In this document: one piece after another, positions 10,740-32,000 of the stretch | Layout of the letters: each line of letters begins with the position of its first letter | Numbering within the stretch: the stretch's first letter is position 1 | DNA from: an uncultured Chloroflexia bacterium | GTDB taxonomy: Bacteria > Chloroflexota > Anaerolineae > Anaerolineales > Anaerolineaceae | NCBI GenBank assembly: GCA_963704755.1 | Contig: OY969938.1 | Span: 450,001-482,000, forward strand | Direction of reading: 5' to 3' | Length of the DNA: 32,000 nucleotides | Translations under genes and position numbers: made by a program | The notes under the pieces: generated by a model | What the model was told of the DNA's origin: nothing | Database searches by the model: none | Seen by the model: the letters and a program-made list of their open reading frames with translations, nothing else

Positions 10740-10770
10740 GGGACTAATTTCTTCAGCTAGATTTTCGAAT

Positions 10771-11667
10771 TCAGAAAGCTTTAAAGTTTAAGAAGTGAAT
10801 CAAAAGGTAATAATGTACCGGATTTTTCGATCCTGCCGCTGGGTTCACCAAATTTCGTAAAAATATCGATGGGTCAATAACTGAAAAACTATTTAACACC
10901 TCCATAGAGAAAAATTTTACAAATTCAGAGGCTAATTTTTTGATGTAAATAGTATTATTAGAAGCAAAGCCCGCTCTGGAAAGGGCCGCATATAGTTTTC
11001 GTTTCAGAGAGTATAGGTTTAGAGTTTGGCCAGGGTCCTGGTATTCCAACAACCATAAAATATCGCGAGAATATTCAAATAAGAATTTTTCAACAATCAA
11101 TTCATCAATATATTCTCGCACATCCGTTTCAAAACTTAGTCTTTCCGCAGGCGTAAAATAATCTTGTTTTATTAAATTTGTTGTTAGTATATTGGTTTGC
11201 TTTAACCAAACATGGTGGATGGGACAAATATATACACACTGTACCTGGAAAAGCCGATGCCAATAGGTTTCTCCCAGCTGTCGCCTATTCTCAATGACAC
11301 ACATTGGGCAATAGTAGAAATGGATTTTACGCTTTAATATACGACGATTTTCTCCCAATGAAGACTTTACACCAATTCCTCGCTCCATCATACTTTCACG
11401 GACTTTTGAAAGTATATTAGGAGAGACAAACGGAATATAATATGGGAATATCGTATGGTTATCTATTAAGAAATCGGGGGGATAATCCCCTCCCGGGAAG
11501 TTGTGCCCACAGAAATACCTCAAGTTCACAGGCAAGTCGTGTATGGCAGTGGCAGATCTAGAACCAAAAAGTTCAGCCAGGATTTTCGATTTTGAAACTA
11601 AATTGAGGGATTCAATATGCCGAGCAATCCCACTATAAACCAATTCATGTTTGAATAATTCAATCAT
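10771..11667 (-). CDS. tniQ: TnsD/TniQ-like protein 2, N-terminal TniQ domain
   Basis: ELVYSGIARHIE, FPYYIPF, and a zinc-finger signature, YYCPMCVIENRRQLGETYWHRLFQVQCVYICPIHHVWL. The ORF ends in a different frame from the 9786-10739 piece. Confidence 0.8.
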   Translation of the reverse strand: MIELFKHELVYSGIARHIESLNLVSKSKILAELFGSRSATAIHDLPVNLRYFCGHNFPGGDYPPDFLIDNHTIFPYYIPFVSPNILSKVRESMMERGIGVKSSLGENRRILKRKIHFYYCPMCVIENRRQLGETYWHRLFQVQCVYICPIHHVWLKQTNILTTNLIKQDYFTPAERLSFETDVREYIDELIVEKFLFEYSRDILWLLEYQDPGQTLNLYSLKRKLYAALSRAGFASNNTIYIKKLASEFVKFFSMEVLNSFSVIDPSIFLRNLVNPAAGSKNPVHYYLLIHFLNFKAF

Positions 11668-11851
11668 GGTTTCTGTCTTTATCGTAAAGACTAGATCTCA
11701 ACTCAATATCACCCAAATATTTAATTATTTCTTCATGCGTCAACAGCCTAGAGACACCTGCACGTCGTATAATTTGCCACCGCTTCGGAACAATGGATTC
11801 ACGTCTATATTGCTCTATTGCCCAATCGATGCGACGAATTCCAAATTCTTC

Positions 11852-13003: not shown

Positions 13004-13592
13004 AGCTGCCGATATTATCTTGAACTGGTCGCATAGGAGGGACCCGGTTAATTTTTTCAGCCGATATAAACAATAATCGTTTGTCCCGATTATGGAATAA
13101 AAAAGGACTGTCCTCCAACCAAGTAAAGTGCTTGGGACAAATAAAGACACCAGAAACTTGATGTATCCTATGCCAATAGCATTTCCCAAATTTTCTGCGA
13201 TCCTCATAAATACACAAAGGGCAATATCGAAGTCTTATTGGCGACTTGACATCACTAGCCGCCAAACCCACTCGCATATAAATATCCGATCCTCTATCTC
13301 CTTTCATATCGTTCCGAATTTGATGAAATTTTGCCTCATCCATAAACGGTGCAAAAAGAGGGAAAAAGGTCATTTCATCAATGACTACATCGGAATCCAT
13401 TTCTGGGTCGCTTATTTGGCTAGTAAAATAATCAAGGTGGCTTGGAAATTCGATTGATGGAATAGCATTTTCTGAGCCAAACAAATGTAATAGCAAGGCT
13501 TTTTGCCGTGAACCATTCAAACTGTCAATATAGCGAGCAATCAGACTAAATGGCACCTCATCGTCAAATCTATCCTGAATATCAATTGACAT
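12957..13592 (-). CDS. tnsD: TnsD-like protein 1, N-terminal TniQ domain
   Basis: The likely start is the ATG at 13592 (MSIDIQDRFDDEVPFSLIARYID), 13 nt after the tnsC stop. FFPLFAPF and LRYCPLCIYEDRRKFGKCYWHRIHQVSGVFICPKHFTWL are present. The ORF stops at 12957, next to an ATTTTC run, while the continuation lies in another frame. Confidence 0.8.
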   Translation of the reverse strand: MSIDIQDRFDDEVPFSLIARYIDSLNGSRQKALLLHLFGSENAIPSIEFPSHLDYFTSQISDPEMDSDVVIDEMTFFPLFAPFMDEAKFHQIRNDMKGDRGSDIYMRVGLAASDVKSPIRLRYCPLCIYEDRRKFGKCYWHRIHQVSGVFICPKHFTWLEDSPFLFHNRDKRLLFISAEKINRVPPMRPVQDNIGSYVFIRVAQEISEFIF

Positions 13593-13605
13593 AAATCCAA
13601 TGCCT

Positions 13606-15399
13606 TTACAAAAGCAAAAATTCTTCGGCACTTCTCAAATAACCATTCATTCGTAATAAATCTAATATCGGCACCCCCGTAGCTTGACTCTTATCAAATA
13701 AGAGCCGCAAATCACCTTCATTAAACTTTTCCTCCACCTTTTCTGCCTTTGGCTTTTTGGGCCTCTTTGGCTTATGTGGATTTAGGATGGTTGAATTATT
13801 AGCTGATTTCGATGACGTGGGGCTATTTACAAGACGAGGTTTTTCAGCCAAAGCTAACTCCTCGGTTGCAGATGGTGATTTCACATCGTTTGTCTCAGAT
13901 ACAATTTTGAGGAGATCAGCTCGCCTGTCATTGAGGAAATTTTCAAAAAATTCTTTCAAATTAAATTGTTTAATGTCTGGAACATCCTCTAAATTCTCAT
14001 AGAGCCCCTTGGTAAGATTATTAATGATTGGCCACGCAAATGCGAATTCGTTCTGTGCCACCCATTCGAATAAGTCAGGAAATATTTGTTTATAAACCGG
14101 TTCATTTTTCTTAGATCCCAGATAAATTTCGGACTGAACTGCGCGAAACTGCACTAAAATATAGGCTTTTATCGCGAAATCAAAAATTCCTGCACTGGCA
14201 TCATACAGTGCATCAGCAATCGAGTTTACTTTATCTTTGTCGTCAATATCGACTGTCTCCATTGTGAACTGATATGCAAGGAGGGTTTTCACAAACAATT
14301 TCCATTCCGGATCATTCCTTGTGAATAGAGGCCATTTCAAATCACCAACACCACAGGCACGACGACACTGCTGTAACTCAGCAGTAAGATAAGGCAAAGC
14401 TTTCGGGGTTCCAATAAGAACAACCGGCATCCCAGAACTATTCACAAGACTCACAAAAAAATTCAGCATCATTGTAGAACCTTGTGATTTTGCCACATCA
14501 AGATTATGAATTTCATCAACGACAAGCAAACCGATACCATGTTTTCGAGACACGATTCGGATGTGCATTATTAGCCTGTCGAGCTTATCTTCCTTCCCTT
14601 TACAGTAAAGGTCCTCATATTTATGCCCTCCAAGAAGACGATCAACCTCGATAAAGAATTCATAGCAAAGAGCCTTTAAAGATGCGTCTGGAGGACAATT
14701 GATTTTTACCCAGACAATCTGCGTTCTGATAAATCTCCGCCCTTTATAATTGTGATGTTCAATGACTTGGTCATATAATACACTTAAGATTGTTTCTATT
14801 GTTGTTGATTTCCCAACACCACTTAACCCAACAATATAGAATCCGGTCGCGGTACTGCGAAGACGATTTTTTGCTTTTTCAAAATAACAATATATTAACC
14901 AGTTTTTCTCCCTCATCCACTTCAGGAATGAACGAATTTTTTTAGGTCGATGTGAATAAAGATTGGAGCGAAAATAACCTTTTCGGCTTTTTCGATAATT
15001 GGCCTGGGCAAGTCCCTTTTCCATATGGCGGTCGTAATGCTTATGAAGTGGATTCCGGCCAAGATATCCTGATCGAATTAATATCGACAATTTCATCGCC
15101 AAAACCAGATGAATGGTTAAAGGTCGAAAAAACTGGTTAAGGTTATAAATTAAATGGTAACGTAAATGTGACGGTAAGAACCTGGAGTTGGGATCTGTTT
15201 GTGGCAAAAACTTAAGCCGGTTGAACGTTTCTATATCCCCTATAATTCCCGGCAAAGATTCTATGTAGGGATTGCCCTGGTAATACGAAATTTCTTGTTC
15301 GCGATACTTTGCCATGACATGTGGAACTTGCATATCCGTTTCGGGTCGAATTTCGACATTCGCATCCCTTCGAAGAACCATCGGAATCCTTCTGGTCAT
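13606..15399 (-). CDS. tnsC: TnsC-type AAA+ ATPase (transposition regulator)
   Basis: Walker A is GLSGVGKSTTIETIL and Walker B is GLLVVDEIHNL. It sits between tnsB and tnsD and overlaps the tnsB stop by 4 nt. Confidence 0.85.
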   Translation of the reverse strand: MTRRIPMVLRRDANVEIRPETDMQVPHVMAKYREQEISYYQGNPYIESLPGIIGDIETFNRLKFLPQTDPNSRFLPSHLRYHLIYNLNQFFRPLTIHLVLAMKLSILIRSGYLGRNPLHKHYDRHMEKGLAQANYRKSRKGYFRSNLYSHRPKKIRSFLKWMREKNWLIYCYFEKAKNRLRSTATGFYIVGLSGVGKSTTIETILSVLYDQVIEHHNYKGRRFIRTQIVWVKINCPPDASLKALCYEFFIEVDRLLGGHKYEDLYCKGKEDKLDRLIMHIRIVSRKHGIGLLVVDEIHNLDVAKSQGSTMMLNFFVSLVNSSGMPVVLIGTPKALPYLTAELQQCRRACGVGDLKWPLFTRNDPEWKLFVKTLLAYQFTMETVDIDDKDKVNSIADALYDASAGIFDFAIKAYILVQFRAVQSEIYLGSKKNEPVYKQIFPDLFEWVAQNEFAFAWPIINNLTKGLYENLEDVPDIKQFNLKEFFENFLNDRRADLLKIVSETNDVKSPSATEELALAEKPRLVNSPTSSKSANNSTILNPHKPKRPKKPKAEKVEEKFNEGDLRLLFDKSQATGVPILDLLRMNGYLRSAEEFLLL

Positions 15400-17633
15400 A
15401 CCTTTTCCTCCGGTGTATGAGTTTCATCAATAATCGGTAAAAGACTTGGGCGCGACACATTTCCGGATGGTCGTGTCATTTTAGGGGCCTGCGGAGATTC
15501 GTCAAGGTCAATCATCTGATTTTGATCAGGATTTGGAATTAATGGGTGCTTTTCACGATCATATCTCTGTTGCTCTAAAGTATTTTGATCTAAGGCCTTA
15601 AGCTGTTGCGCCTTGGGGATATCCTTCCGTGCCGCTTGAGCTTCAATAGATGCTGCTTGAGATATAGCAGCCACTGCGGCGTCTTTAATTACCCGTGCCT
15701 GTGTCTCCTTGGCCTTTAATTCATGAGCTTGCAGATTTTCTAAACGTTTCATCTCCTTTATCTCATCTAGGGTTAAATTTAGATAGCGTTCAAATCCTGG
15801 TCCAAGTTTTAGCGGTGTGTATTTTTTCCCATCCAATTGTATGTAAACAATCGATGGCGTTTTCGGTCGAAATACAACTTTAAATTTTCTACGCTTATCG
15901 GTGAGGGCTAAAATTGCATAACGTTCGTTCAATTCTTTATCATCGCTCAGATAAATCATTTCCTGGAACAACCAGCCCTTCTCCGTATTCGATGCCGTCC
16001 CATTAGGTAACAGATTGAGCATGGCAATATTGCGATCGACCTCATGAAGCAAACAGCCACGATGGGCCACTCCCCAAGCCCATAAATACACTGGTATCGG
16101 CGGAACCTTTTCCGCTATCATTTCCGCAGTGCGGGGATAATTCTCTAGAACGTGATAATTGTTAAAGTAAATGAAAAATAAAAGGGAAATTTTCGTAATT
16201 TCTTCAGGAGTCAGGCTCGCCTCCAACATGCGATTTTTTTCACCTCGTTTATGTGGCCCATCTACTCCCCCAGGTTGATTTTGAAGCTCGATGTTGGCGA
16301 TTTTTAGAAAGGATTCGATAAGTGGTTTCCAGATGGGTGTATAACAAGGATTATTATCAACCCTAATTCCAAGGTTCTTTATGAACTTATTAGACGCTCT
16401 GGTCTTCATCTCCGCATTATCGGCCAAGAATGAAGCGGGTGCCCCCTCGGCTGGCCATTGACTTTCTAAAATAGATATGCCATATTTTTTGCAGAGTTCT
16501 ACCTTATTTTCTAAACAGTTATCGAAGCCGAGCAGCATGGTATCGAAACTAGAAGACTCCGAAGAATTGCAAAACCCACCTACCATACAAGAAAAACTAT
16601 CAAAAAAAACGTAGCAAGTTCTTCGAGATATAATCTTTGCTCTATCGGATGAACTCACCCCATAAAGGTCAATTATTGTAGAGTCCATCGAGTATTGCTC
16701 GCCAGGTGTGTCCACTTGAAGAGTCGCGTACCCTAATTTTGGATGAAAAGTTAAATTGAATTTTCGTTCACCCAATTTATTTTTGAAGAATTTTGCAGGG
16801 TCTTTGCGCCACTCTTTTTTGAAAAAGAAATAAAGCTGATCATATGTCAATCGCTGATTTGCCGGAACCAGTTCAGGTCCGGAACTGCCATGCTCGTCTG
16901 TGATAATGTTTCCCGTTGTGTAATATTTGGCAAGAATTTTTTCATGCACCTTAGTTAAAGGCGTGTCGTCCTTATAATATTTTTCTAAACTCAAGAACAT
17001 AATCATACGCTGTTCTTCTTGGGTATAAATCGGCTCAGCTCGCTTGATATTCGGGTTATTTAATCTGGCTTCGATTTCAGTCAAATTCAGCCTACCAATT
17101 TTTTTCTTAGATCCTTTTTTGTTGTTATGGGGCCTTCCAGGACCACCACAATTTTCGTAATCCGAGGCAATCGCGTCGGGAGTCATACCACCACGCCAAT
17201 ATTTTCGCACGAGACGAAGAATGGTCTTTTTGGAAAGATTGAATACGAGCGCAACATGCAAGATTATTTTCCCCAATTTTTCCTTATCATAAACGTCCGG
17301 ATTCGCCTTCCCGTTCTTATAAAGGACTAAGTCAATGATCTCGTTATTCCTATTTTTGAAATAGGTGTAGGTATCTGTGCGTTCTTCATCACGTGTCAAT
17401 CGACGATTTTCATAAGTCGCGTCTTCTTCTAAAATAATTAGTTTTCCTTCAGCCATTTTGGACTGGATTTCATCAAGCGAATAATTAAAAGCGTCAGGTG
17501 CTGGTTTTTCGGCCATTGGAAATAAAACACAATTCTCCACTCCTACCGACAGAATGCGGAAATCCTTGCCAGTAAAATCACCATCTGCGAAATGGATGAT
17601 CTTACCAATTTTGGGGGTTTTTGAAGATGCCAT
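15396..17633 (-). CDS. tnsB: TnsB-type DDE (Mu/rve-like) transposase
   Basis: An N-terminal HTH (KKTILRLVRKYWRGGMTPDAIA). Acidic triad candidates are YSMDSTIIDL, FLADNAEMK...LGIRV and PIWKPLIESF. It is 745 aa long. Confidence 0.85.
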   Translation of the reverse strand: MASSKTPKIGKIIHFADGDFTGKDFRILSVGVENCVLFPMAEKPAPDAFNYSLDEIQSKMAEGKLIILEEDATYENRRLTRDEERTDTYTYFKNRNNEIIDLVLYKNGKANPDVYDKEKLGKIILHVALVFNLSKKTILRLVRKYWRGGMTPDAIASDYENCGGPGRPHNNKKGSKKKIGRLNLTEIEARLNNPNIKRAEPIYTQEEQRMIMFLSLEKYYKDDTPLTKVHEKILAKYYTTGNIITDEHGSSGPELVPANQRLTYDQLYFFFKKEWRKDPAKFFKNKLGERKFNLTFHPKLGYATLQVDTPGEQYSMDSTIIDLYGVSSSDRAKIISRRTCYVFFDSFSCMVGGFCNSSESSSFDTMLLGFDNCLENKVELCKKYGISILESQWPAEGAPASFLADNAEMKTRASNKFIKNLGIRVDNNPCYTPIWKPLIESFLKIANIELQNQPGGVDGPHKRGEKNRMLEASLTPEEITKISLLFFIYFNNYHVLENYPRTAEMIAEKVPPIPVYLWAWGVAHRGCLLHEVDRNIAMLNLLPNGTASNTEKGWLFQEMIYLSDDKELNERYAILALTDKRRKFKVVFRPKTPSIVYIQLDGKKYTPLKLGPGFERYLNLTLDEIKEMKRLENLQAHELKAKETQARVIKDAAVAAISQAASIEAQAARKDIPKAQQLKALDQNTLEQQRYDREKHPLIPNPDQNQMIDLDESPQAPKMTRPSGNVSRPSLLPIIDETHTPEEKV

Positions 17634-17636
17634 TGC

Positions 17637-17840
17637 TCATTCACCTTTTCGATATGATGGTTGAGTTTTTAAGATCTTGATTGGTTTCGCAGTGTCAAAA
17701 GGCATGGTAAAGTCGTATTGCCATCGTTTTGTAGCGATAAAGTACTGAGCGGCATTGATACTCTTCCCCTTGATCAAACCAAGCAATTGATCACACTCAC
17801 TTGAGCATTCATATAGAGACAATTCACCCTTCATCACCAA
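17637..17840 (-). CDS. tnsA: Probable C-terminal domain of TnsA, displaced into another frame
   Basis: AAQYFIATKRWQYDFTMPFD resembles the TnsA C-terminal winged-helix region. The 212 + 67 aa total approaches the 273 aa of Tn7 TnsA. It overlaps the tnsA ORF by 17 nt in a different frame. Confidence 0.45.
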   Translation of the reverse strand: MVMKGELSLYECSSECDQLLGLIKGKSINAAQYFIATKRWQYDFTMPFDTAKPIKILKTQPSYRKGE

Positions 17841-18462
17841 CGGGGTTAACGTTGAGTAAATTCGCTGAAAATCTTCTTCTGAAATCCCCTTTAAGATGAT
17901 AATACGGCCATAATCTTCTACAGTTTTTCTTTATAACGTCTGGGATCAAGTCAACGATGACCAAGCCCCAATCATAATTTCGTGAAAGATAAAACATCCT
18001 TTCGATCTCCAGATGCTCAAAAACATTCCGCTTTTGTAGACCACTTAAATATTTGACTGACCGAACCACGAATTTTACTTCCCCGTCGGATAGCCGAACC
18101 TTTAAGAGAAAATCTGATGTCATTACTACATTGACCTTCGTATTTTTATCCGCCGGATGCTTAATTCCTAATCCTTTTGCGATGATTTCTGTTGCTTCTC
18201 GAGGCAGTAAAGCTGGTTGTTCTCGAACTTCCTCCACCACTCCTGCTAGGTTATTAATTGCATATACTAGGGTTTCTCCCCAGCTCAATGTTGTTTTAAT
18301 ACCATCTGACAGCGTCCCAGGTGATCTGGACGTAGTTCCAGATGAGGATAAATCGAAGACCTCCAGGTAGGATTGGTAATCTTCACCCTCTCCCTGACCG
18401 CGACCATCCTCTTTTTTCTGCTGGATGTTTTTTTCAGTAGCTCCGTAACGAAACCTTGGCAT
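17824..18462 (-). CDS. tnsA: TnsA-type endonuclease subunit (catalytic domain)
   Basis: Restriction-endonuclease-like pattern: YQSYLE, VMTSDFLLKV...FVVRSVKY and LEIERMFY...WGLVIVDLIP. It lies immediately upstream of tnsB. Confidence 0.7.
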   Translation of the reverse strand: MPRFRYGATEKNIQQKKEDGRGQGEGEDYQSYLEVFDLSSSGTTSRSPGTLSDGIKTTLSWGETLVYAINNLAGVVEEVREQPALLPREATEIIAKGLGIKHPADKNTKVNVVMTSDFLLKVRLSDGEVKFVVRSVKYLSGLQKRNVFEHLEIERMFYLSRNYDWGLVIVDLIPDVIKKNCRRLWPYYHLKGDFRRRFSANLLNVNPVGDEG

Positions 18463-21416: not shown

Positions 21417-22178
21417 TTGATCATTCCTGAATCAAGTGTTCATTTTGGTTTTGTTATTAAAGGCATGGGGGCGCATACAGGGCGAACCATCATGTTTCGT
21501 GAAATCGCAGCTTTGTTCGCTGCCTGCCCAGGCGAAATGTCGATTGATGAATACCGTAACGCCATTATTGAAGAGAATGCGCTGCTAAAACCTACTGCAT
21601 CAGCTCGTGAAGAGAGCTTCCGGCGGCTGAAGCAGCTATACACTTTGGACGCACAGATCGTGGTGTTCCGCTCCCTGCGGATGTTGTGGGAACAAGACCC
21701 TGATCGGCAGCCTCTATTAGCACTGCTGGCAGCCACTGCCCGTGATCCCCTTCTTCGCGCCACAGTTCAAACCGTCATTGATTTACCTGAGAATGAGACG
21801 ATTACTGCCCTGGATTTTGCCCAGGTGATCAATGCGGCCTTCCCTGACCAGCTAACGAAAAACACCCTGGCCAGTGTGGGCCGCAACCTGGCGTCATCCT
21901 GGACTCAATCTGGGCACTTCAGCGGTGAGACGCAGAAGATGCGTAAGCCGGTGCAAGCCAGTCCAGTTGTGACAGCCTTTGCTCTGTTCCTGGCATATCT
22001 TTGCGATTTCCGTGGTGACGCGCTGTTTGATTCTCCCTGGGCACGGCTTTTGGACACCCCGAAACACATTCTGTCCGACCAGGCACAGCAAGCTTCTCAA
22101 CTCGGTTGGCTCGAATTTCGCCGCTCCGGCGCGATTACCGAAATTACTTTCCGTCATTTCTTGAAAGATCAATCATGA
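21417..22178 (+). CDS. brxA: BrxA (DUF1819-like)
   Basis: MFREIAALF...IDEYRNAIIEENALLKPTASAREESFRRLKQLYTL matches my memory of the BrxA family pattern. It is first in the A-B-C-X order. The start is TTG, and its stop overlaps the brxB start as ATGA. Confidence 0.75.
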   Translation: MIIPESSVHFGFVIKGMGAHTGRTIMFREIAALFAACPGEMSIDEYRNAIIEENALLKPTASAREESFRRLKQLYTLDAQIVVFRSLRMLWEQDPDRQPLLALLAATARDPLLRATVQTVIDLPENETITALDFAQVINAAFPDQLTKNTLASVGRNLASSWTQSGHFSGETQKMRKPVQASPVVTAFALFLAYLCDFRGDALFDSPWARLLDTPKHILSDQAQQASQLGWLEFRRSGAITEITFRHFLKDQS

Positions 22179-22732
22179 GCGAAGTCGAAGATTTACTCAA
22201 AGCATACGAAAGCATCGTCCGCTTACCCTGGAGTTCTTCTCTTTCTGGTCAGGAGCGAGTGTGGTTTGTTGTTTACGATCCTGCCCAGGAACGCCGTATC
22301 CGCCTGCGCTTGGGCGAATTTGAGAACATCACCAAAAAGGCCGGACACACCTGGAAAAGCCTGGATCTGACCGATTCGTTTGCGCAATGGATGAGCCAGC
22401 ACAAGTATCGGGATGCTTATTTTGAGGAACCGGAGGCTCTTGCCCCAGCTCTTAATAATTTCACCACCTCGGTTGCGGCCCAAATCAAATCGACCTTGAC
22501 TGCTTCCGATGTGGACAACAATACCGTCGTAGCACTTTCAGGTCTGGCATCGCTGTTTGGATTGACCCGCGTCTCCGTCACACTCGAGAAAGTGATTCCC
22601 GACTTGCGCGGTCGACTCTTAGTGTTCTTTCCCGGACAACACGACGGTTCAAATTACCGATTATTAGATGCACGAGATGGTTGGAATTACCTGGCTGTCC
22701 CGATTACTGCTAAAAAATGGGGAGTTGACTGA
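22175..22732 (+). CDS. brxB: BrxB (DUF1788-like)
   Basis: LLKAYESIVRLPWSSSLSGQERVWFVVYDPAQERRIRLRLGEFE. The real start is taken as the ATG at 22175 (ATGA overlap) rather than the track's start at 22106. Confidence 0.8.
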   Translation: MSEVEDLLKAYESIVRLPWSSSLSGQERVWFVVYDPAQERRIRLRLGEFENITKKAGHTWKSLDLTDSFAQWMSQHKYRDAYFEEPEALAPALNNFTTSVAAQIKSTLTASDVDNNTVVALSGLASLFGLTRVSVTLEKVIPDLRGRLLVFFPGQHDGSNYRLLDARDGWNYLAVPITAKKWGVD

Positions 22733-22734
22733 CT

Positions 22735-25700
22735 ATGAAAAATCGCGAATTATTCCTTGTTGACCCTCTTTCCTTCACCATCCCAAATGATGGGGTTACC
22801 TCGATCTACAATCCCCAAACAGAAAAAGAATGGGAAGTAATCCAGTATGAGCTCAAATCGTTTGTCTGCGAAGGTGAATATCATCGCGGCCTGGAACGCA
22901 TTCTCTCGTCATTTTTAGGAAATCTGGGAAATCCCAAACAACCTGCGGTCTGGGTCAGCGGTTTTTATGGGTCCGGTAAATCGCATCTGGTCAGGGTATT
23001 ACAGTATCTTTGGAATGACGTGGAGCTGCCCAATAAGGCCAGGGCGCGCAGCCTGGTCAATTTGCCTCCAGCCATTAAAGATCTGCTCAAGGAGCTTTCG
23101 ACGCGCGGCACCCAGGCAGGCGGGTTGTGGTCTGCGGCTGGAAAGCTAACCTCTGCATCCAACCAAAGCCTGCGGATCGGCTTGCTTGGGATCCTCTTCC
23201 AATGCGCTGGATTACCCGAACAGTATCATTTAGCCCGTTTCGTGATTTGGATGAAGCGAAATGGCTATTACAACGCTGTTCGAGAATGGATCGAAAAGTC
23301 GGGGGCCTCCTTCGAAGAGGAGTTGGAAAACCTGTATGTTTCCAAGATCGCGACAGGTCTACTGAATGTTTACCCTGGTTTCGCGGCAACTCCCGGGGAA
23401 GCGCGTAAATTGTTGGCGGCAAATTTCCCCCAGAAAGTGGATATCTCGGATGGCGAGTTTCTGGACACGCTCGAGGATGTCTTGGAGCTTCAACAGCAAA
23501 CGCCTGGGAAATTGCCGCTGACTCTGATCATTTTCGACGAGCTGCAACAATTCTTGGGTGAAGATCCGGAACGCACGCTCCAACTGCAAAATGTGGTTGA
23601 AGCCTGTTCTGCCCGCCTCGGGAGCAAGCTGCTTTTTATCGGCACCGGCCAGGCAGCACTGCAAAAAAACACGCAGCTCTCTAAATTAGTCGCACGTTTT
23701 ACCGTCAAGGTTATGCTGGAAGACACGGATGTGGAAACCGTCGTCCGCCAGGTTGTATTGCGGAAAGCAGCCGATAAGGTATCGAATCTCGAGAACGTTT
23801 TGGACTCAAACCAGGCTGAAATCGACCGTCACCTGGTAGGGACGCAAATCGCGCCAGTCGCCCAAGACAATGAAATTATGATCGCCGATTATCCCCTGCT
23901 GCCCACGCGGCGCAGGTTCTGGGAACGCGTCTTGCGCGCGATCGATACGGCTGGCACCGCGGCCCAATTGCGCACCCAGCTCCGGGTGATTCACGAATCC
24001 AACCGGTTGGTAGCCGACCGCCCCTTGGGAACAGTCGTCCCCGCCGATATGATCTATGAGCAGCAGGAATCGAGTATGCTGCAAAACGGCGTTCTTCTCA
24101 AGGAAATCGCGACCATCATCCACTCGCAGGAGAATGGCACGGAAGAAGGGCTACTCAAGAAACGCCTGTGTTCCCTGATTTTCTTGATCGGCAAGCTTCC
24201 CACGGAAGGAGCTGCGATTTCAGGAATTAAATCCAACCCGGATATGTTGGCAGACCTTCTGGTTGAAGATCTATCTAAGGGGAGCACTGCATTACGCCAC
24301 TCGATCCCTGGTTTGTTGGAAGAAATGACTCAACAGGGCATTTTGATGAAGGTGGATGATGAATACCGGCTTCAGACCGCCGAAGGGTCAAAATGGGAAG
24401 AGGATTTCCGCAAACGCTTCATGTCTCTACGCGCCAATGACACCCGGATTGCCAGCGAGCGCGACACAACCCTTCATCAGGCTATCGCCAAACCGCTAAA
24501 GACCATTACGCTAGTCCAAGGGGCCTCAAAAACAGCGCGAAAATCTGATCCTTATTACGGTTCAGACGTGCCGAAGGTTGACGGCAGTACAGTGCCCATA
24601 TGGATCCAGGACGAATGGTCGGTGACTGAAAAATCGGTGCGCGATGCCGCCCAATCGGCCGGAACGGAGAACCCGGTTGTGTTCGTTTTCTTCTCAAAAC
24701 GCGACACGGATGCTCTGCGGGATGGCCTGGCCGCCTCCAATGCCGCCAAAGAGGTACTGGAAACGCGTCCCAACCCAACCACCCCGGAAGGCTTTGAGGC
24801 GCGGCGGGCGATGGAATCGCGGAAAGTCATTGAAGAAAGGAAATTGTCCTCCATCATCGGAGGAATTGTTGAACGAGGCCGCATTTTCCAGGGCGGTGGG
24901 TATGAAATCGTTGATACCTCCTTTACCGACGCGATGAAAACGGCCCTCGAAGCATCTTTGGTGCGGTTATTCCCTAAATTTAACATCGGGGACCACAAAG
25001 ACTGGAAAAAGGTCGTTGATAAAGTGCAGGAAGGTGCCACGGACGCCTTGAAGTTTGTGGGCTATAACGGGAATGCCGATCAACATCCGGTTTGCCAGGA
25101 GATTCGCACCTTCATCGGCGGAGCAGGTAAAAAGGGCAGCGAGATCCGCAAGAAATTCACCGGTGCCGGTTATGGTTGGCCGCAAGACGCGGTTGACAGT
25201 GCCTTGTTGGTGCTGCTAGCAGGCGATTTTCTAAACGCCACTCAGAGCGGGCAACCAAAAGCTTTCAAAACGGTCAACCAAAGCAACATTGGCATCACCG
25301 ATTTCCGGCTACAAGGAATAACGATCACCATCACACAGCGGATTACCCTGCGTGGCTTGCTCAATGATCTCAAAATCCCTTATAAGCCCAACGAAGAAGG
25401 CGAGGCAATTCCGGCTGCCCTTCAGCTTCTCCTGGACCTGGCAAACGAGGCCGGTGGGTTGCCGCCGCTGCCCGAAAAGCCATCCACAATTAAAATCGAT
25501 GATCTGCGCGCCTTGAGCGGAAATGAGCAGTTCGCCGCGGTGGTAGAGGCAAAAGCGGAATTGCTCGGCAATTACAATGCCTGGACCGCGTTGAAAGACA
25601 AGAAATCGTTGCGAGTTCAGCGCTGGAATACCTTCCAACGGCTTAAGCATCACGCTTCCAACCTGGCGCTGGCAGCCGAGCTCAACCTCCAGATAGCCGC

Positions 25701-26187
25701 AATTCAAACCAACCGCAGCCTGTTGGAAGATCCTGACCCGGCGATTCCGCTTTTCAGCCAGCTGGTCGATGTGTTACGCCAGGCATTGCTTGGCGTTAGC
25801 CAGCGTTTCCAGGAAAGCTACACCACTCAGATTGAAAAGCTCAAGCAGAATGATGCTTGGCAGAAGATCAGCGAAGGCCAACGCCAAACCATCTTGATCC
25901 AAACCGACCTGGTAGCTGTCGCCGAGCCCAAAATGGGAACCGATGACGAATTACTGGCTTCATTCGATCGGCAGTCCTTATCCGCCTGGGAAAACAAGAT
26001 CGCAGCCCTCCCTGCGCGCGGCAGCCAGGCTATCCTCCTGGCGATTCAATTGATCACCCCCCAAGCGATCAAGGTAACGCCGAAAACAGCTACCATAACC
26101 TCGATCGAAGATGCAGACGCTTATTGGAAAGAACTGCGTTCAGAGATTAAAAAGCACCTCGATAACGGGAATCCAGTGGTTATTTAG
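22735..26187 (+). CDS. brxC: BrxC/PglY-type P-loop ATPase
   Basis: Walker A is VSGFYGSGKSHLVRVL and Walker B is LTLIIFDELQQF. It is 1150 aa long and lies after brxB. Confidence 0.9.
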   Translation: MKNRELFLVDPLSFTIPNDGVTSIYNPQTEKEWEVIQYELKSFVCEGEYHRGLERILSSFLGNLGNPKQPAVWVSGFYGSGKSHLVRVLQYLWNDVELPNKARARSLVNLPPAIKDLLKELSTRGTQAGGLWSAAGKLTSASNQSLRIGLLGILFQCAGLPEQYHLARFVIWMKRNGYYNAVREWIEKSGASFEEELENLYVSKIATGLLNVYPGFAATPGEARKLLAANFPQKVDISDGEFLDTLEDVLELQQQTPGKLPLTLIIFDELQQFLGEDPERTLQLQNVVEACSARLGSKLLFIGTGQAALQKNTQLSKLVARFTVKVMLEDTDVETVVRQVVLRKAADKVSNLENVLDSNQAEIDRHLVGTQIAPVAQDNEIMIADYPLLPTRRRFWERVLRAIDTAGTAAQLRTQLRVIHESNRLVADRPLGTVVPADMIYEQQESSMLQNGVLLKEIATIIHSQENGTEEGLLKKRLCSLIFLIGKLPTEGAAISGIKSNPDMLADLLVEDLSKGSTALRHSIPGLLEEMTQQGILMKVDDEYRLQTAEGSKWEEDFRKRFMSLRANDTRIASERDTTLHQAIAKPLKTITLVQGASKTARKSDPYYGSDVPKVDGSTVPIWIQDEWSVTEKSVRDAAQSAGTENPVVFVFFSKRDTDALRDGLAASNAAKEVLETRPNPTTPEGFEARRAMESRKVIEERKLSSIIGGIVERGRIFQGGGYEIVDTSFTDAMKTALEASLVRLFPKFNIGDHKDWKKVVDKVQEGATDALKFVGYNGNADQHPVCQEIRTFIGGAGKKGSEIRKKFTGAGYGWPQDAVDSALLVLLAGDFLNATQSGQPKAFKTVNQSNIGITDFRLQGITITITQRITLRGLLNDLKIPYKPNEEGEAIPAALQLLLDLANEAGGLPPLPEKPSTIKIDDLRALSGNEQFAAVVEAKAELLGNYNAWTALKDKKSLRVQRWNTFQRLKHHASNLALAAELNLQIAAIQTNRSLLEDPDPAIPLFSQLVDVLRQALLGVSQRFQESYTTQIEKLKQNDAWQKISEGQRQTILIQTDLVAVAEPKMGTDDELLASFDRQSLSAWENKIAALPARGSQAILLAIQLITPQAIKVTPKTATITSIEDADAYWKELRSEIKKHLDNGNPVVI

Positions 26188-26195
26188 GGGGAGAT

Positions 26196-27542
26196 ATGTC
26201 CGACCTCACTGAACATGATTGGTCTATTCATCAACATGATCATTTGCCCGTGAGATATTCACGACATGAATCCCGATCTTATCTGATCAATCATTTAAGT
26301 TGTCGAAAACTTACAACCCTCACAAATAGACCAAGAAAACCGATGGCAACGGATAAAACATTCCACACAAACGAGGATTTTTGGGGAAGGTTTTTACGAT
26401 CTACCAGGTATTATGGGTTTCAAAATGTCATCTTAAGTGGTTTTCGGATATTTGATTGGTTCCCAAGATCTCCGGGACTATCGTACACACTTGGAGCTGA
26501 CGAGGCATGGGAAAACGCTAGAAATCATTTAGAAGCTGGCTCATCATTTGTTTACACACCAGAAGGGAAAGAGTGGGCGCTCAAAGGCGGCATTGGTAGC
26601 TATCGTTTCAACCCATTCAGTTATCAGGGAACTACTTATTGCCTAGGCACGGCTTCTTCTTCGGAATTTTGCCATTCCGGTATCCCATTGGCCATCCCAA
26701 TGGAATTCATGGAAAACCTGGAATTCCGAGTATCGCACAAAATTGTAGGACACTATCAACCAATTGCTGAACCCATAGCAATATTATTGCCACACAATAG
26801 AGGTATTCCGAAGTTTTATTTTCTTGTTGAGGAAATCGAACGAATCAATCCTTTGGGGTCACCTTCACTTATCACTCCAGTTGTATTGATGCGTAGAGAT
26901 AATGGAGAGGAGCTGGTTTCATATTGTTCTTGTAATCCTGATGATCCCGATGACCTAAATTCGACTAGCGATTGGTTACAGGAATATGCCCACCGTTATG
27001 ATGCTTCGATCATAACTGATTATGATCAGCAAAATCCGGCATTTATCGACTTGCCCTTTAGTCTGCAAAATGTGATGGGCAATAAAATTAGTTATGCATC
27101 GCTCATTGATAATGGATTTTCCCCGAGAGAAGCGATGATTTTGAATGGCATGAGGAGGCCGATTGTGAATAACAAATATGAAGGAAACATCAATTTCGTA
27201 CAAGGAAATAATTCGGGTAACTTAACTGCTGCCACAAATATTTCTAACAGTTTTAATCCCACAACTAACTCTATTCCAGACGAAGCAATGTTGCTGTTTG
27301 AACAGTTAGGAAGTCAAATCGATGCTTTATGCAAGCAACTTTCTACCGATGAAGCGGCTATTGTCAAACAGGATCTTGATGTCGTAGCCAAGGAAGCTGC
27401 CAAAGAGAAACCAAGCAAAAAGATCTTCGAGATAAAGTTTGAATCGCTCAAGAAAGCTGCTGAGAATGTAGCAGAACTGGCAGGACCGATTGCTTTGACC
27501 GCCGGTAAACTCCTCTCCATCCTTCTAACATTAGCAAAATAA
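26196..27542 (+). CDS. Uncharacterised 448-aa protein embedded in the BREX operon
   Basis: The ATG lies behind GGGGGAG. There are 8-nt and 17-nt gaps to brxC and pglX. It is AT-rich relative to both neighbours. No catalytic motif was recognised. It has an Asn-rich linker and a hydrophobic C-terminal tail. Confidence 0.7.
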   Translation: MSDLTEHDWSIHQHDHLPVRYSRHESRSYLINHLSCRKLTTLTNRPRKPMATDKTFHTNEDFWGRFLRSTRYYGFQNVILSGFRIFDWFPRSPGLSYTLGADEAWENARNHLEAGSSFVYTPEGKEWALKGGIGSYRFNPFSYQGTTYCLGTASSSEFCHSGIPLAIPMEFMENLEFRVSHKIVGHYQPIAEPIAILLPHNRGIPKFYFLVEEIERINPLGSPSLITPVVLMRRDNGEELVSYCSCNPDDPDDLNSTSDWLQEYAHRYDASIITDYDQQNPAFIDLPFSLQNVMGNKISYASLIDNGFSPREAMILNGMRRPIVNNKYEGNINFVQGNNSGNLTAATNISNSFNPTTNSIPDEAMLLFEQLGSQIDALCKQLSTDEAAIVKQDLDVVAKEAAKEKPSKKIFEIKFESLKKAAENVAELAGPIALTAGKLLSILLTLAK

Positions 27543-27559
27543 ACTTCCTAGGATATTCC

Positions 27560-30500
27560 GTGCCTTCCTTAAACCCAACTTTGCGCAAGTCCCTCGAAAA
27601 CAAGATTCCCGCTGTCCGCCAGATTGCTGAGGAGGCAGCGCGGGCTGTTTTGAATACGCTGGCCATCAATCGACTGGAGCCTTTTCCAGGGATGACACCC
27701 GAACTGCGCAAGCTGCGCAATGCCCTTCGCGCCAAAGCCCGGCAGCTGGGCGAGGGCAGCCAGACCACCGGTTTCGAGCCGCTCGTGGAAGAGCTAGCCT
27801 ACCAGCAATGGCACCGCATGGTGTTTGCGCGCTTCCTGGCCGAAAATCAACTTTTAATGCACCCCACTGGCGTTTCGGTGACCTTGCAAGAATGTGGCGA
27901 GTTGGCACAGGAAGAGGGCGAAGTTGACGCCTGGGCAGTGGCGTCTAAATACGCAACCATAATGCTTCCAGGCATCTTTCGCCCGAATGACCCCGAAAGC
28001 CAGGTGCGCCTGACCCCGGAAGGTCAGCAGAAGCTTGAAATGGCCCTAAATGATATCGAACAGCCGGTCTTTCTGGCAGATGATGCGTTGGGCTGGATGT
28101 ACCAATTCTGGCAAAAGCTGAAGAAAGATGAAATTAACCGAAGCGAACGGAAGATTGGCGGCGCGGACCTCTCGCCAGTTACGCAATTATTCACCGAAGA
28201 TTACATGGTGTCCTTCCTTTTAGAAAACTCGCTGGGAGCCTGGTGGGCCACCCGCCATCCATCCAGCCCTTTGATCAAAGGCTGGAGATATCTCCGTTTT
28301 AATGATGACGGGAAGCCCGCAGCGGGCAGTTTTCCTGGTTGGCCTGAACTCGCCTCACAGGTGACGATGATGGATCCTTGCTTTGGCAGCGGACACATTC
28401 TGGTGGCGGGGTTCTACATGCTTGCATCAATGCGCATGGAAGAGCAAGGGTTAAATGCAGCCGAGTCTGGAGAGGCTGTACTACGTGATAACCTTTTTGG
28501 GTTAGAACTCGACCCGCGGTGCACCCAAATTGGCGCGTTTGCCTTGACTCTGGCAGCCTGGAAAAGCGGTGGTTACCGTATACTGCCTGTACCAAATCTG
28601 GCTTGCTCGGGCATCCCGGTGCAGGGTCAGCTAGAAACCTGGTTGGTATTGGCCGAGGAGGACACCCGCGTGCGCGCCGGGTTGGAACGCCTCTACAATC
28701 TTTTTAAGGATGCACCGACGCTAGGCAGTCTGATCAACCCGACTAATCTGCCAGCCGCTGATCGAATGTTTGTCGCCGACTACGAACAAATTTCGCCAGT
28801 ATTGGAACAAGCTCTAGACAAAGAACACAATCTCGACAATTCGATCTCCGAAATGTTTGGTGTTGTAGCAAATAGCGTGGGCAAAGCAGCAAAATTACTA
28901 TTGGGAAAATACACACTAACAATTACGAATGTGCCTTATTTAGCAAGAGGAAAACAAGATGAAGTTCTCCAAGATTTTTGCAAAGAATACCACCCATTAG
29001 CAAAGACAGATTTAGCCACCGTTTTTGTCGAAAGATGTCTTGATTTTTGTAATTTAATGGGAACGATTGCAGTTGTTACACCTCAGGGTTGGCTATATCA
29101 ACCCACATATAAAAAATTCCGGGAGTTCATGCTTTCAAATTCGTATTGGGACTTTGTAACCCCCTTAGGTGTTCGTGCCTTCGAAACTATTACCGGAGAA
29201 GTTGTCAATATCGTGTTACTGGTAATATCGTCGAACAAGCCAAAATCACAAAAAAAAATTGCTAGTCTTGATGCATCCTTTAATGATTCGCCTTCATCAA
29301 AAGCAAAATTTCTTGAGGAAGGAGAAGTTATCTGGATTTCCCAACAAAATCAATTACACAATCCCGATGCAAGGATTATTTTAGGCGACTCGTTGAAAGG
29401 TGAACTTCTTCAAAAAATAGCAGCATCTTATCAGGGAATAAAAACGGGTGATGACGGAAGATTCAAAAGAAATTTTTGGGAGTTATCATATTTAGGAGAG
29501 AATTGGCGTTTCTATCAGAGCACTATTAATCAGACAACATATTTTGGTGGAATGGAAAATGTTATAGATTGGCGGGAAAATGGGAAAAACTTGGCTCGGC
29601 TTCAAGGCTTAAAGGCATGGGGAAAACCAGGTATTGCAGTTAGTCAAATGACGGGTTTACCAGTTTCTCTATATACAGGTGAGATATTTGATAGTAATAT
29701 TTCTCCGATAATTCCTCACAAGCAAGAAATGTTAAAAGCACTTTGGGCCTTTTGCTCATCAAAAGAATATAAAGTTGCCGTTAAACAAATTGATAAATCA
29801 TTAAAAGTAACAAACTCAGCATTGATTCAGATCCCATTCGATATAGAACGTTGGCAAAAAGTCGCTAATGAGACTGCACCTATTCCATTGCCCTTTTCGA
29901 ATAATCCCACTCAATGGTTGTTCAATGGGCACCCCCGAAGCTCCACAGCACCACTTCATGTTGCGGTAGCACGGCTTTTGGGGTACCACTGGCCACAACA
30001 AGTAAGCGACTTGCTGGATGATCTCGCGGACGAGGACGGTATCGTCTGCTTGGTCCCTGTTGCTGGAGAACCTTTGCTAGCGGAACGCCTACGCAAAATT
30101 CTAGCAGCAGCCTACAGCAGCGAGTGGTCTCCACGTTTACAAGCAGAATTGCTTTCTACCGCTGGTATGGCGGGCAAATCATTAGAGGATTGGCTGCGGG
30201 ACGATTTCTTCGCCAACCACTGTCGATTATTCCAAAACCGGCCTTTCCTTTGGCAAATCTGGGATGGACGTATCGACGGTTTTTCTGCATTGGTGAATTA
30301 TCACAAGCTCAATGCAGCCCGCCTGGATAAACTAATTTATACATACTTGGGCGATTGGATTCGCTTCCAGCGCGCTCGACGCGATCACGGGGAGCCAGGC
30401 GCTGATGGACGGCTGGTTGCGGCGCTCGAATTGGAGAAAAAACTTAAGCTGATCAAAGATGGCGAACCGCCATACGACATTTATGTGCGTTGGAAGCCGC

Positions 30501-30718
30501 TGGCGCACCAGCCTATAGGCTGGGACCCGGACTTAAATGATGGAGTGCGACTGAATATCCGTCCCTTTGTTAACGCTGGGGTGCTGCGCAGCAAATTTAC
30601 GATCAACTGGAACCAAGATCGTGGTTCAGATCTAGATGGCAGCGAGCGATTGAATGATAAACATTTCAGTATCGCGGAAAAAATGGAAGCGCGGCGGATT
30701 TCTGGAACGCATAGATAA
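27560..30718 (+). CDS. pglX: PglX, the BREX N6-adenine DNA methyltransferase
   Basis: N-terminal AYQQWHRMVFARFLAENQLL, motif I MMDPCFGSGHIL, motif IV ITNVPYL, and C-terminal WDPDLNDGVRLNIRPF. The start is GTG. Confidence 0.9.
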   Translation: MPSLNPTLRKSLENKIPAVRQIAEEAARAVLNTLAINRLEPFPGMTPELRKLRNALRAKARQLGEGSQTTGFEPLVEELAYQQWHRMVFARFLAENQLLMHPTGVSVTLQECGELAQEEGEVDAWAVASKYATIMLPGIFRPNDPESQVRLTPEGQQKLEMALNDIEQPVFLADDALGWMYQFWQKLKKDEINRSERKIGGADLSPVTQLFTEDYMVSFLLENSLGAWWATRHPSSPLIKGWRYLRFNDDGKPAAGSFPGWPELASQVTMMDPCFGSGHILVAGFYMLASMRMEEQGLNAAESGEAVLRDNLFGLELDPRCTQIGAFALTLAAWKSGGYRILPVPNLACSGIPVQGQLETWLVLAEEDTRVRAGLERLYNLFKDAPTLGSLINPTNLPAADRMFVADYEQISPVLEQALDKEHNLDNSISEMFGVVANSVGKAAKLLLGKYTLTITNVPYLARGKQDEVLQDFCKEYHPLAKTDLATVFVERCLDFCNLMGTIAVVTPQGWLYQPTYKKFREFMLSNSYWDFVTPLGVRAFETITGEVVNIVLLVISSNKPKSQKKIASLDASFNDSPSSKAKFLEEGEVIWISQQNQLHNPDARIILGDSLKGELLQKIAASYQGIKTGDDGRFKRNFWELSYLGENWRFYQSTINQTTYFGGMENVIDWRENGKNLARLQGLKAWGKPGIAVSQMTGLPVSLYTGEIFDSNISPIIPHKQEMLKALWAFCSSKEYKVAVKQIDKSLKVTNSALIQIPFDIERWQKVANETAPIPLPFSNNPTQWLFNGHPRSSTAPLHVAVARLLGYHWPQQVSDLLDDLADEDGIVCLVPVAGEPLLAERLRKILAAAYSSEWSPRLQAELLSTAGMAGKSLEDWLRDDFFANHCRLFQNRPFLWQIWDGRIDGFSALVNYHKLNAARLDKLIYTYLGDWIRFQRARRDHGEPGADGRLVAALELEKKLKLIKDGEPPYDIYVRWKPLAHQPIGWDPDLNDGVRLNIRPFVNAGVLRSKFTINWNQDRGSDLDGSERLNDKHFSIAEKMEARRISGTHR

Positions 30719-30752: not shown

Positions 30753-31244
30753 TTGAATCTGCCCATTCCTGAAGATATTAGCGATGAAGACGTTGATATC
30801 AGTGTGCCAGAAGAAAAGCGCAAAATTAATGCAATTCCTTCTGATCAGGAAATTCACTCAATAGTTCATAAATGGCAAAATGGCATTCTGATTCTTCAGC
30901 CGGATTTTCAACGTTATTATGTTTGGGATGAGAAAAAAGCCAGCCGTTTAATCGAATCAGCGCTCTTGTCAGTTCCTTTACCATTGATTTACCTTTCAGA
31001 AGACCCGAATGGTAACTTATCCGTAATTGACGGGCAGCAGCGTTTACACACGTTTATTTCATTTATTCACGGCAAGTATATCCATAACAACAAACCATTT
31101 GTTCTCAAAGACCTACGTGTTTTCAAGGAACTAAATGGACAGTCATTTAAAAATATCCCGGCGGTTTACCAGAATCGTTTGCGATATTTCACCCTCCGTG
31201 TAATTACCATTAAGCAGCGATTCGGATCCTCGCTTGAAGCATGA
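30753..31244 (+). CDS. DUF262 (ParB-like) domain protein, N-terminal part (GmrSD/BrxU-like)
   Basis: LQPDFQRYYVW...LIESALLSVPLPLIYL...IDGQQRLHTF. The listed start is TTG without a Shine-Dalgarno sequence. An ATG with AAGGA at 30725 lies in another frame. Confidence 0.75.
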   Translation: MNLPIPEDISDEDVDISVPEEKRKINAIPSDQEIHSIVHKWQNGILILQPDFQRYYVWDEKKASRLIESALLSVPLPLIYLSEDPNGNLSVIDGQQRLHTFISFIHGKYIHNNKPFVLKDLRVFKELNGQSFKNIPAVYQNRLRYFTLRVITIKQRFGSSLEA

Positions 31245-32000
31245 AATATTCGAACGGCTGAATACGGGCGCAGTTGCTTTGAACAATATGGAATTGCGCA
31301 ATTGTTTAAATCAAGGCCGAATTTTAACCCTTTTGAAAGAACTATCCGCATATCCTCCATTCAGAGAATTGTTAGGCCTGCAAGATGCCGATCCACGTAT
31401 GCGTGATGTTGAACTCGTTCTGCGTTTTTCCGCCTTTTATCATCATGGGTATACTGGCTATAGCAGCCCGATGAAAAAGTTTCTGAATGATGAGATGGAA
31501 ACTTATCAGAACATTACCGAACAGGATGCGGTTGCATTAAAGAAGAAATTCAAAATAACAGTGACGATAATCAAATCATTATTTGGAGAAAACGCATTCC
31601 ATCGGTATGTTGCCGGAAAAGTCGGTTCTATTGACGGTAACTGGGAGACAAAAACCTTTAACGCGGCACTTTATGACGTTTATATGAACGTTTTCAGTAA
31701 TAAAGATCGTAATCAGGTCCAAAAGTCGGCAGATTTAATCCGAGAATCGATAATCGACCTGATGTCAAACAATCAGGATTTCATTGATGCGATCCTTCTT
31801 GCCACCAGTAATACAGATCGAGTAAAAAAGCGCTTCTCTTTAATGTATCAACTGACCGATAATATCCTGGCAAAGAAACCAAAACAAGCGCGCCTGTTTT
31901 CTTATGAAATCAAAAAGCAATTATTTGATGCCAATCCTGTGTGCGAAATATGCAGTCAACAGATTTTTTCGATTGATGATGCTGCTGTAGATCACATTGA
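31204..32000 (+). CDS. Continuation of the DUF262 protein in the +1 frame, with a C-terminal HNH/His-Me finger. The 3' end is outside the window.
   Basis: My own translation gives KHEIFERLNTGAVALNNMELRNC..., the canonical DUF262 continuation. It ends with CEICSQQIFSIDDAAVDHI at the window edge. The frame is open from 31204. Confidence 0.75.

Follow-up and report, generated by a model that had tools for sequence, protein, structure and literature searches.

Genes nested within type 1 bacteriophage exclusion (BREX) operons are known chiefly from one hotspot, the interval between pglX and pglZ, which a survey of embedded genes covered, and not from the interval between brxC and pglX (PMC11341690). 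PARIS (AriA/AriB) in a Salmonella type 1 BREX operon and the GmrSD protein BrxU in the BREX operon of pEFER are thought to back up BREX against phages that evade it (PMC11341690), and a 2026 survey catalogues back-up nuclease effectors in BREX loci (PMC12839542). In Ronin systems, the 61-residue protein RonA, with a clear transmembrane helix, is probably membrane-active and is released when anti-restriction proteins appear; Ronin needs its own HsdM and HsdS as a decoy and is linked to HsdMS and, in E. coli, to BREX (10.1101/2023.04.06.535777). The PDC candidates of PADLOC were selected for embedding in BREX, DISARM or type I restriction-modification (R-M) loci (10.1101/2024.01.29.577857). The gene described here, called X, lies in the brxC-pglX slot of a type 1 BREX operon within the 32,000-nucleotide (nt) stretch whose first lines stand above (positions 450,001 to 482,000 of contig OY969938.1, from an uncultured Chloroflexia bacterium; the window). 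Its sequence, relatives and contexts suggest, at a probability of roughly one half, that X is a self-contained single-protein sensor-plus-effector defense gene, co-transcribed with its neighbors and carried as a second-layer passenger in one type 1 BREX lineage. Membrane- or pore-type effectors did not come up in a term search of the 2026 survey, whose passages covered here hold nothing resembling the X family (PMC12839542).

The gene and its junctions are as follows.

26196..27542, + strand: X, an open reading frame (ORF) with an ATG start, 448 amino acids and a TAA stop at 27540-27542
26185..26195, + strand: brxC stop and 8-nt spacer, with a purine-rich, Shine-Dalgarno-like run TAGGGGGAGAT immediately 5′ of the X ATG
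27543..27559, + strand: 17-nt spacer between X and pglX, read from the sequence and ending at the pglX GTG at 27560

An earlier sequence-only reading of this DNA had placed a 448-residue ORF between brxC and pglX, at distances of 8 and 17 nt respectively; all of its coordinates are confirmed. The brxC stop TAG occupies 26185-26187 and is followed by GGGGAGAT and then by the X ATG, the upstream junction reading TAGGGGGAGATATG. Comparison with relatives indicates that X is a real gene and not a chance ORF, because homologues of equal length in three other BREX loci have a matching N-terminus (MSDLTEHDWSI / MPGLEDHDWSI) and lie at the same position; a protein identical to X is already present in sequence records. 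A simple scan of the + strand, a weak test, found no terminator-like hairpin at the brxC-X or X-pglX junction and placed the best promoter-like site upstream of brxA, weak evidence that is consistent with a single transcript for X with brxC and pglX.

X is a member of a large unnamed family that is unmodelled in Pfam, NCBIfam and PHROGs, where searches with X gave nothing significant; matches to the NCBIfam model 'thylakoid ssr2422' and to PHROG tape-measure proteins (E 0.06-0.13) were set aside as helical-segment noise. Searches of the PDB sequences with the X protein and with profiles of its N-terminal domain (N-domain) and C-terminal module (C-module) returned nothing below E 0.19. The sequence-only reading had recognized no catalytic or helix-turn-helix (HTH) motif, which the Pfam, NCBIfam, PHROG and PDB searches bear out; no mobility domain was detected with Pfam or PHROG. 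A word-indexed search found only 22 relatives, and an exhaustive full-length profile search of 1.84 billion representatives (one protein per 50%-identity cluster) raised this to 2187 at E<=1e-3, of which 459 reach E<=1e-30. In an alignment of 22 proteins with 24-54% identity to the window protein (alignment A1), 19 columns are invariant. Phage genomes gave no family match and viral contigs a single partial one, and the family is essentially absent from phages.

The protein divides into four parts.

26196..26345, + strand: variable, His/Arg-rich N-terminal ~50 residues, with a predicted local distance difference test (pLDDT) score <50 for residues 1-20 and 36-50 and 25-38% identity within the BREX clade
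26346..27110, + strand: conserved N-domain, residues ~51-305 (~255 amino acids), defined by invariant alignment columns; proposed sensor domain
27111..27269, + strand: Asn/Gly-rich linker, residues 306-358, with pLDDT <50 for residues 321-357
27270..27539, + strand: C-terminal four-helix module, residues 359-448 (~90 residues); proposed effector or adaptor module

The N-domain carries the motifs DWFPRSPG, K125, GGIGxxR137, TA[ST]SxxxCH[ST]GxPLAxP and ITDYDQQ (alignments A1 and A5), and its invariant residues include D87, W88, P90, R91, P93, G94, K125, G131, G132, G134 and R137, with Y264 and D277 near-invariant in the first alignment and invariant in two others. AlphaFold2 modelled the N-domain alone at a pLDDT of 88 and a predicted template modelling score of 0.84. 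Foldseek searches of the PDB and BFVD with the full model and with the N-domain model found no match at E<=1e-3. Recurrent weak matches over ~90 columns were to oligonucleotide/oligosaccharide-binding (OB) domains of AspRS/AsnRS (anticodon-binding), RPA, PriB, SSB and CST, with probabilities up to 0.96-0.99, E-values of only 8e-3 to 0.3, and TM-scores of 0.2 on the query and 0.4-0.5 on single-domain targets; a putative OB-like sub-domain inside an otherwise unmatched fold is a lead only. Two enzymatic sites were considered for the N-domain and rejected. A protease site (Ser/His/Asp or Ser/Lys) within TA[ST]S..CH[ST]G is countered by members with Asp or Ser in place of H160 and by the lack of a match to a protease fold, and the R-S-E pattern of ADP-ribosyltransferases by the lack of a conserved ExE and of a fold match.

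The linker, read earlier as an Asn-rich low-complexity segment, is indeed rich in Asn and Gly, but it ends in a conserved IxNSFN motif (I349-N354, nt 27240-27257) that is common to all C-module carriers (alignments A1 and A4) and likewise precedes the module in stand-alone C-module proteins. The C-module is predicted by AlphaFold2 to form helices at residues 362-379, 384-401, 408-423 and 426-447 (pLDDT ~85). Its end had been called a hydrophobic tail; the last helix is moderately hydrophobic (19-residue Kyte-Doolittle mean 1.7; 1.2-1.8 in relatives) and retains a conserved Lys and Pro. The sole PADLOC match of X is a weak one over this end to PDC-M14B, in which residues ~326-443 match profile positions ~154-262 of three PDC-M14B models (weak but recurrent, E 3e-5 to 4e-6). 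No PDC-M14A match was found among the neighboring ORFs scanned with PADLOC.

The C-module is portable, and effector domains take its place in relatives. A strict hidden Markov model detects the same C-module as that of X in 70 of 166 collected members, stand-alone C-module proteins of 120-200 amino acids exist (some of them contig fragments), and in loci L019 and L038 the C-module is a separate ORF right after the N-domain ORF. Partner domains were surveyed in 60 representatives chosen for lacking the C-module or having an N-terminal extension, and 12 of these carry TIR_2, at either protein end, fused to the N-domain. In P0017-P0021, TIR stands in place of the C-module. TIR occurs only in relatives (e.g., P0017-P0021, P0075, P0083 and P0161), X itself having no Pfam match to it. 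Other partners are PNP_UDP_1 (P0094), CHAT (P0136), an N-terminal caspase+GUN4 arrangement (P0150), N-terminal EAD7 (three cases) and an Xre-type HTH domain (HTH_31; two cases), and the tail of P0016 shows a D...ExK pattern and, as read from the sequence with no model match, resembles a PD-(D/E)xK nuclease.

A C-module was also seen beside a different protein. In L096 (4737-6363), a 419-residue protein with the PF27061 'Gasdermin_protease' domain ends in an NNSTVGD..VAA....SFN motif, a repeat of the linker motif, and a near-identical motif opens the next ORF, which starts 4 bp later and encodes a 120-residue stand-alone C-module protein; on these sequences the junction looks like the split or duplicated junction of a fusion protein. 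A relationship between the X N-domain and the PF27061 domain was rejected, as the two have no similarity. Literature term searches for PDC-M14 and 'Gasdermin_protease' returned nothing useful.

Relatives of X are embedded in two kinds of methylation-based defense operon. A check of brxC-pglX junctions in related BREX loci, proposed with the sequence-only reading, found homologues in the same slot in L001, L002 and L005: the nearest relatives among those whose context was read, P0002 (54% identity to X), P0003 (49%) and P0004 (43%), each occupy the brxC-pglX interval of a BREX-1 operon of the same subtype, with spacers of 14-26 nt. The four BREX-embedded proteins are mutual best matches, with P0038, P0046, P0031 and P0034 (context unread) interleaved among them. 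A more distant relative, P0009 (30% identity), occupies the hsdR-hsdM interval of a type I R-M operon in three contigs, separated by 41 nt from the upstream hsdR and by 9 nt from the downstream hsdM. Most members are not embedded: only five of 76 distinct loci are, four of them BREX alleles (the window counted) and one the type I R-M operon. In raw tallies over these 76 loci, taken without a background control, neighbors include NACHT (3), TIR (2), AbiTii, SIR2, ArdC-N, Uma2, AAA_15/AAA_21, protein kinase, HNH, DUF4365, SLFN_AlbA_2 and HEPN/MNT genes as well as ordinary ones, and in L028 a type I R-M system lies 4.6 kb from the family member. X thus shows the features used to argue guilt by embedding (Payne et al., preprint), namely same-strand nesting in the BREX core, homologues embedded in independent systems, and un-embedded homologues near defense genes.

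Within its slot, X appears to be exchanged as a cassette. The evidence for its hypervariability comes from a single closely related locus pair, L001 and L002, with protein identities as follows.

L001 vs L002, protein identity: BrxA 94%, BrxB 98%, BrxC 95%, X 44%

PglZ and BrxL are 95% and 98% identical in the same pair. Compared in 200-nt windows, the DNA of the locus is 91-99% identical, with a collapse to 42-61% over precisely the segment bounded by the brxC stop and the pglX start. The sole drop comparable to that of X, to 43-54%, is in the PglX specificity region, and the 5′ half of pglX stands at ~80%. The X tree also conflicts with the BrxC tree, as the L002 X is the most divergent of the four, yet the L002 BrxC is near-identical to that of L001. 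Because identity collapses exactly across X and the two trees conflict, sequence comparison indicates that X is swapped as a recombining cassette, with the conserved ends of brxC and pglX as probable homology arms, in the manner of specificity regions; the low-GC stretch of pglX (the equivalent of window 28800-29800) is likewise, by the same comparison, probably a swapped target-recognition region. Divergence of X is spread along the whole protein and is highest in the first 50 residues and the linker.

The separate history that the sequence-only reading proposed for X is therefore real, being shown by allele replacement through recombination, but the low GC content on which that proposal relied gives no basis for it. 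Its 60-base counts are exact (21/60 at 26401, 43/60 at 27721 and 32/60 at 21481), and at the gene level GC is 0.413 in X, 0.525 in brxA-C, 0.481 in pglX and 0.395 in the 21-kb left flank. However, each of the four loci has X at 8-11 points below its BREX genes, and in 36 of 40 loci the family member has a lower GC content than its flanks (median difference -5.8 points). The GC content of X in the window, L001 and L002 is near that of the host background, and it is the BREX core that stands out as richer. Since low GC is a family-wide trait and X sits near host background, it is not evidence of recent insertion here.

The sensor-effector defense reading is favored because the family combines with effector domains, is embedded in methylation-based defense operons, has defense-type neighbors, diversifies as a cassette and is essentially absent from phages. 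The conserved ~255-residue N-domain would recognize a cue of phage infection, and recognition would free or activate the C-terminal four-helix module. The module would then harm the infected cell, possibly at the membrane, with relatives having TIR, PNP, CHAT, caspase or nuclease-like domains in its place; the outcome would be a back-up, abortive-infection-like layer once BREX has been evaded. The option of a nested defense gene had been raised in the sequence-only reading, and it fits the fusions to these same domains, the defense-type neighborhoods and the type I R-M embedding, so that its overall interpretation is partly supported.

Several observations weigh against this reading. No P-loop, nuclease, known catalytic, toxic or HTH domain was detected in X with Pfam, NCBIfam, PADLOC or PHROG, and Foldseek and the PDB profile search gave no structural or sequence match indicating a function for the C-module, whose last helix is of borderline hydropathy for a membrane helix. 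The BREX-clade alleles P0003 and P0038 (69% mutually identical) end right after the linker and lack the C-module, P0003 being found on contigs from three samples (L005 5293-6321, also L006 and L024); because of these alleles the N-domain alone may be enough, which is a poor fit to a pure sensor role. N-domain-only proteins adjoining NACHT genes, together with the EAD7 fusions, fit an N-domain that is an effector or NTPase partner and not a sensor. Most of the 76 distinct loci have unremarkable or uninformative neighbors, and retention of the slot among loci whose BrxC proteins are 55-95% identical could just as well reflect a role in BREX itself.

Among the alternatives, the one that survives best, possible although not probable, is that X guards a methyltransferase module by the logic of PrrC, Ronin and PARIS. 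PglX or HsdM would hold X inactive, and a phage anti-restriction protein that disables the complex, such as an Ocr-like DNA mimic or a S-adenosylmethionine-depleting enzyme, would unleash X to kill the cell. The gene order suits this arrangement, as X is directly upstream of an N6-adenine methyltransferase gene and downstream of an ATPase/translocase gene in both contexts (brxC-X-pglX and hsdR-X-hsdM). Ocr inhibits both type I R-M and BREX, the latter by binding PglX (PMC11341690), and precedents exist in PrrC in EcoprrI, RonA (10.1101/2023.04.06.535777) and PARIS inside Salmonella BREX. Between L001 and L002, identity in the 5′ half of pglX (~80%) is also below that of the remaining locus, although a simple recombination tract can explain this. 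The alternative is rated no higher because most family members have no methyltransferase neighbor: beyond the five loci embedded in BREX or type I R-M, the 76 loci lack an adjacent methyltransferase, and the family as a whole cannot depend on one. A more elaborate version, which we regard as doubtful, holds that the N-domain is an undescribed immune sensor fold and that the embedded clades guard N6-adenine methyltransferase complexes, detect anti-restriction factors that disable PglX or HsdM, and kill via a new helical effector; if true, these clades would form a new family of anti-anti-restriction systems and offer a handle on phage attack of BREX in poorly studied bacteria.

It is unlikely that X is instead a lineage-specific accessory subunit or regulator acting within BREX, for example by modulating the activity or target choice of PglX or BrxC. 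Such a role would account for the presence of X in the same slot of all four related BREX loci (the window, L001, L002 and L005; BrxC 55-95% identical), with tight spacers and no terminator found, and for the persistence of alleles without the C-module. The pglX-pglZ slot, by contrast, holds different cargo from locus to locus: a GmrSD-like gene in the window, and in L001 (11550-13216) and L002 (14692-16358) an HTH + Peptidase_M78 (ImmA/IrrE-like) gene paired with a DUF4411 gene, 94-99% identical between the two loci. However, X shows no homology to BrxA, BrxB, BrxC, PglX, PglZ or BrxL in PADLOC, where it matches no BREX model while its neighbors match strongly, or in Pfam, which upholds the earlier view that it is not a BREX core gene. 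It is also not found throughout the BREX-1 loci of its BrxC subfamily, the slot being empty in the distant loci of Runella and Haliscomenobacter. In a distant BREX-1 locus on a plasmid of Deinococcus sp. NW-56 the slot is taken by a gene with a UvrD helicase domain (L100 12457-14478), pglX being followed by HNH and DarT genes; the brxC-pglX slot can therefore hold other cargo. Most family members lie outside BREX, fused to death or effector domains, and X diverges far faster than its supposed partners.

No likelier is the possibility that the roles proposed for the two halves of X are reversed, with the N-domain acting as the effector, enzymatic or toxic, and the C-module serving, as EAD7 would in relatives, as an adaptor that docks onto an NTPase (NACHT elsewhere, BrxB or BrxC here). 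N-domain-only members of 335-344 amino acids stand directly downstream, on the same strand, of a large gene in Nostoc genomes and on plasmid pNPM4, where the large gene is annotated as NACHT; this arrangement suggests a two-gene, NACHT-linked form of the family. The loci are as follows.

L015 7836-10990; L021 5193-8417; L032 1814-5198; L099 82-3446: Nostoc N-domain-only loci

N-terminal EAD7 fusions exist, the invariant polar residues K125, R137, Y264 and D277 together with the Gly-rich loop could form an active site, and a passage of PMC12839542 describes BrxB as an inactive STAND NTPase. Set against this, the N-domain is joined to many bona fide effectors (TIR in 12 proteins, PNP, CHAT, caspase) and to HTH, the usual pattern for a sensor or regulatory domain, and it has no fold match to any enzyme class.

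That X has no defense role and is a passenger or a gene in decay, selfish or neutral and lodged in a permissive intergenic slot, its low GC and hypervariability reflecting relaxed constraint, is very improbable in view of the intact full-length ORFs, the invariant columns, the confident predicted fold, the thousands of relatives, the conserved slot and the lack of a detected mobility domain.

The operon around X had been read as a BREX operon from the sequence, and PADLOC confirms BrxA, BrxB, BrxC and PglX.

21417..22178, + strand: brxA (PADLOC BrxA model PDLC02450, E 2.6e-82)
22175..22732, + strand: brxB (PADLOC BrxB model PDLC02469, E 2.6e-74)
22735..26187, + strand: brxC, 1150 amino acids (PADLOC BrxC model PDLC02489, 1344 bits, full length)
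27560..30718, + strand: pglX, 1052 amino acids, GTG start (PADLOC PglX model PDLC02528, 1357 bits; Pfam Eco57I and N6_Mtase)
28800-29800, + strand: low-GC segment of pglX, probable specificity region (GC 0.37 vs 0.51-0.56 elsewhere in pglX)
30753..32000, + strand: GmrSD/DUF262-type (NsnA-like) gene 3′ of pglX, leaving the window (Pfam GmrSD_N E 3e-22; PADLOC NsnA E 5.6e-39)

The mechanically called brxB ORF starts at TTG 22106 and overlaps brxA by 73 nt (22106-22178), and the true start is probably ATG 22175, in an ATGA overlap with the brxA stop, because the PADLOC alignment begins at ORF residue 24. The GmrSD-like gene occupies the well-known pglX-pglZ hotspot and has an HNH-like C-terminal end; frame analysis shows a break in its reading frame near 31215-31245, the mark of a pseudogene or of a sequencing error.

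A Tn7-like transposition module lies on the - strand at window 9786-18462, comprising a TnsA-like protein, a TniB/AAA_22 ATPase and three TnsD/TniQ-type ORFs, with an unannotated 745-residue ORF, ~28% identical to Mu-type transposases, at the place of tnsB. The BREX block (GC 0.52; host background 0.40) is on the tnsA-proximal side of this module. Beyond the TnsD/TniQ ORFs, on the + strand at 1273-3042 and 5637-9572, are an N6/N4 DNA methyltransferase gene and a gene for a 1311-residue protein with weak sub-threshold nSTAND NTPase matches, and the wider region therefore looks like a defense island.

Should X protect against phage, as the sensor-effector reading proposes, it would represent a new defense family with thousands of members, modelled by PADLOC only weakly and only over the last ~100 residues, and TIR, PNP, caspase and CHAT effectors would gain a new partner in its N-domain. 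The brxC-pglX slot is much less studied than the pglX-pglZ slot, and X and the PglX specificity region are the only swapped parts in the near-identical L001 and L002 loci. The swapping of X points to a second site, besides target choice, at which this BREX lineage faces phage pressure.

Like PARIS and BrxU, X is an extra same-strand gene inside a BREX-1 operon. PARIS and BrxU, however, belong to known families, an OLD-ABC ATPase plus TOPRIM (AriA and AriB) and DUF262 plus HNH, whereas X matches neither family and is a single protein without a fold match, at a different position in the operon (brxC-pglX). PrrC, which consists of an ABC-type ATPase domain and an anticodon-nuclease domain, is a latent suicide effector inside the EcoprrI type I R-M locus, and P0009 is also type I-embedded; unlike proteins of the PrrC/RloC type, X has no P-loop and no match to ATPase or nuclease domain models in Pfam, NCBIfam or PADLOC. 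Ronin resembles X in its linkage to R-M-like methyltransferase genes and to BREX, while X differs in its size of 448 amino acids, its large conserved N-domain, a membrane activity that is only putative and the lack of decoy HsdMS genes, the ORF list and PADLOC showing no hsdS or hsdM beside X in the window. The PDC-M14B N-terminal ~150 residues and the A component of PDC-M14, itself uncharacterized, have no counterpart here, and it is the last ~100 residues of X that match the C-terminal part of PDC-M14B. Finally, no sequence or fold relation of X to the sensors of SAVED/CARF-effector and STAND/Avs systems was found, nor an NTPase domain or an associated cyclase, but the X family resembles these systems in its architecture, in which a single conserved domain pairs with TIR, PNP, caspase/CHAT, nuclease, HTH or helical modules.

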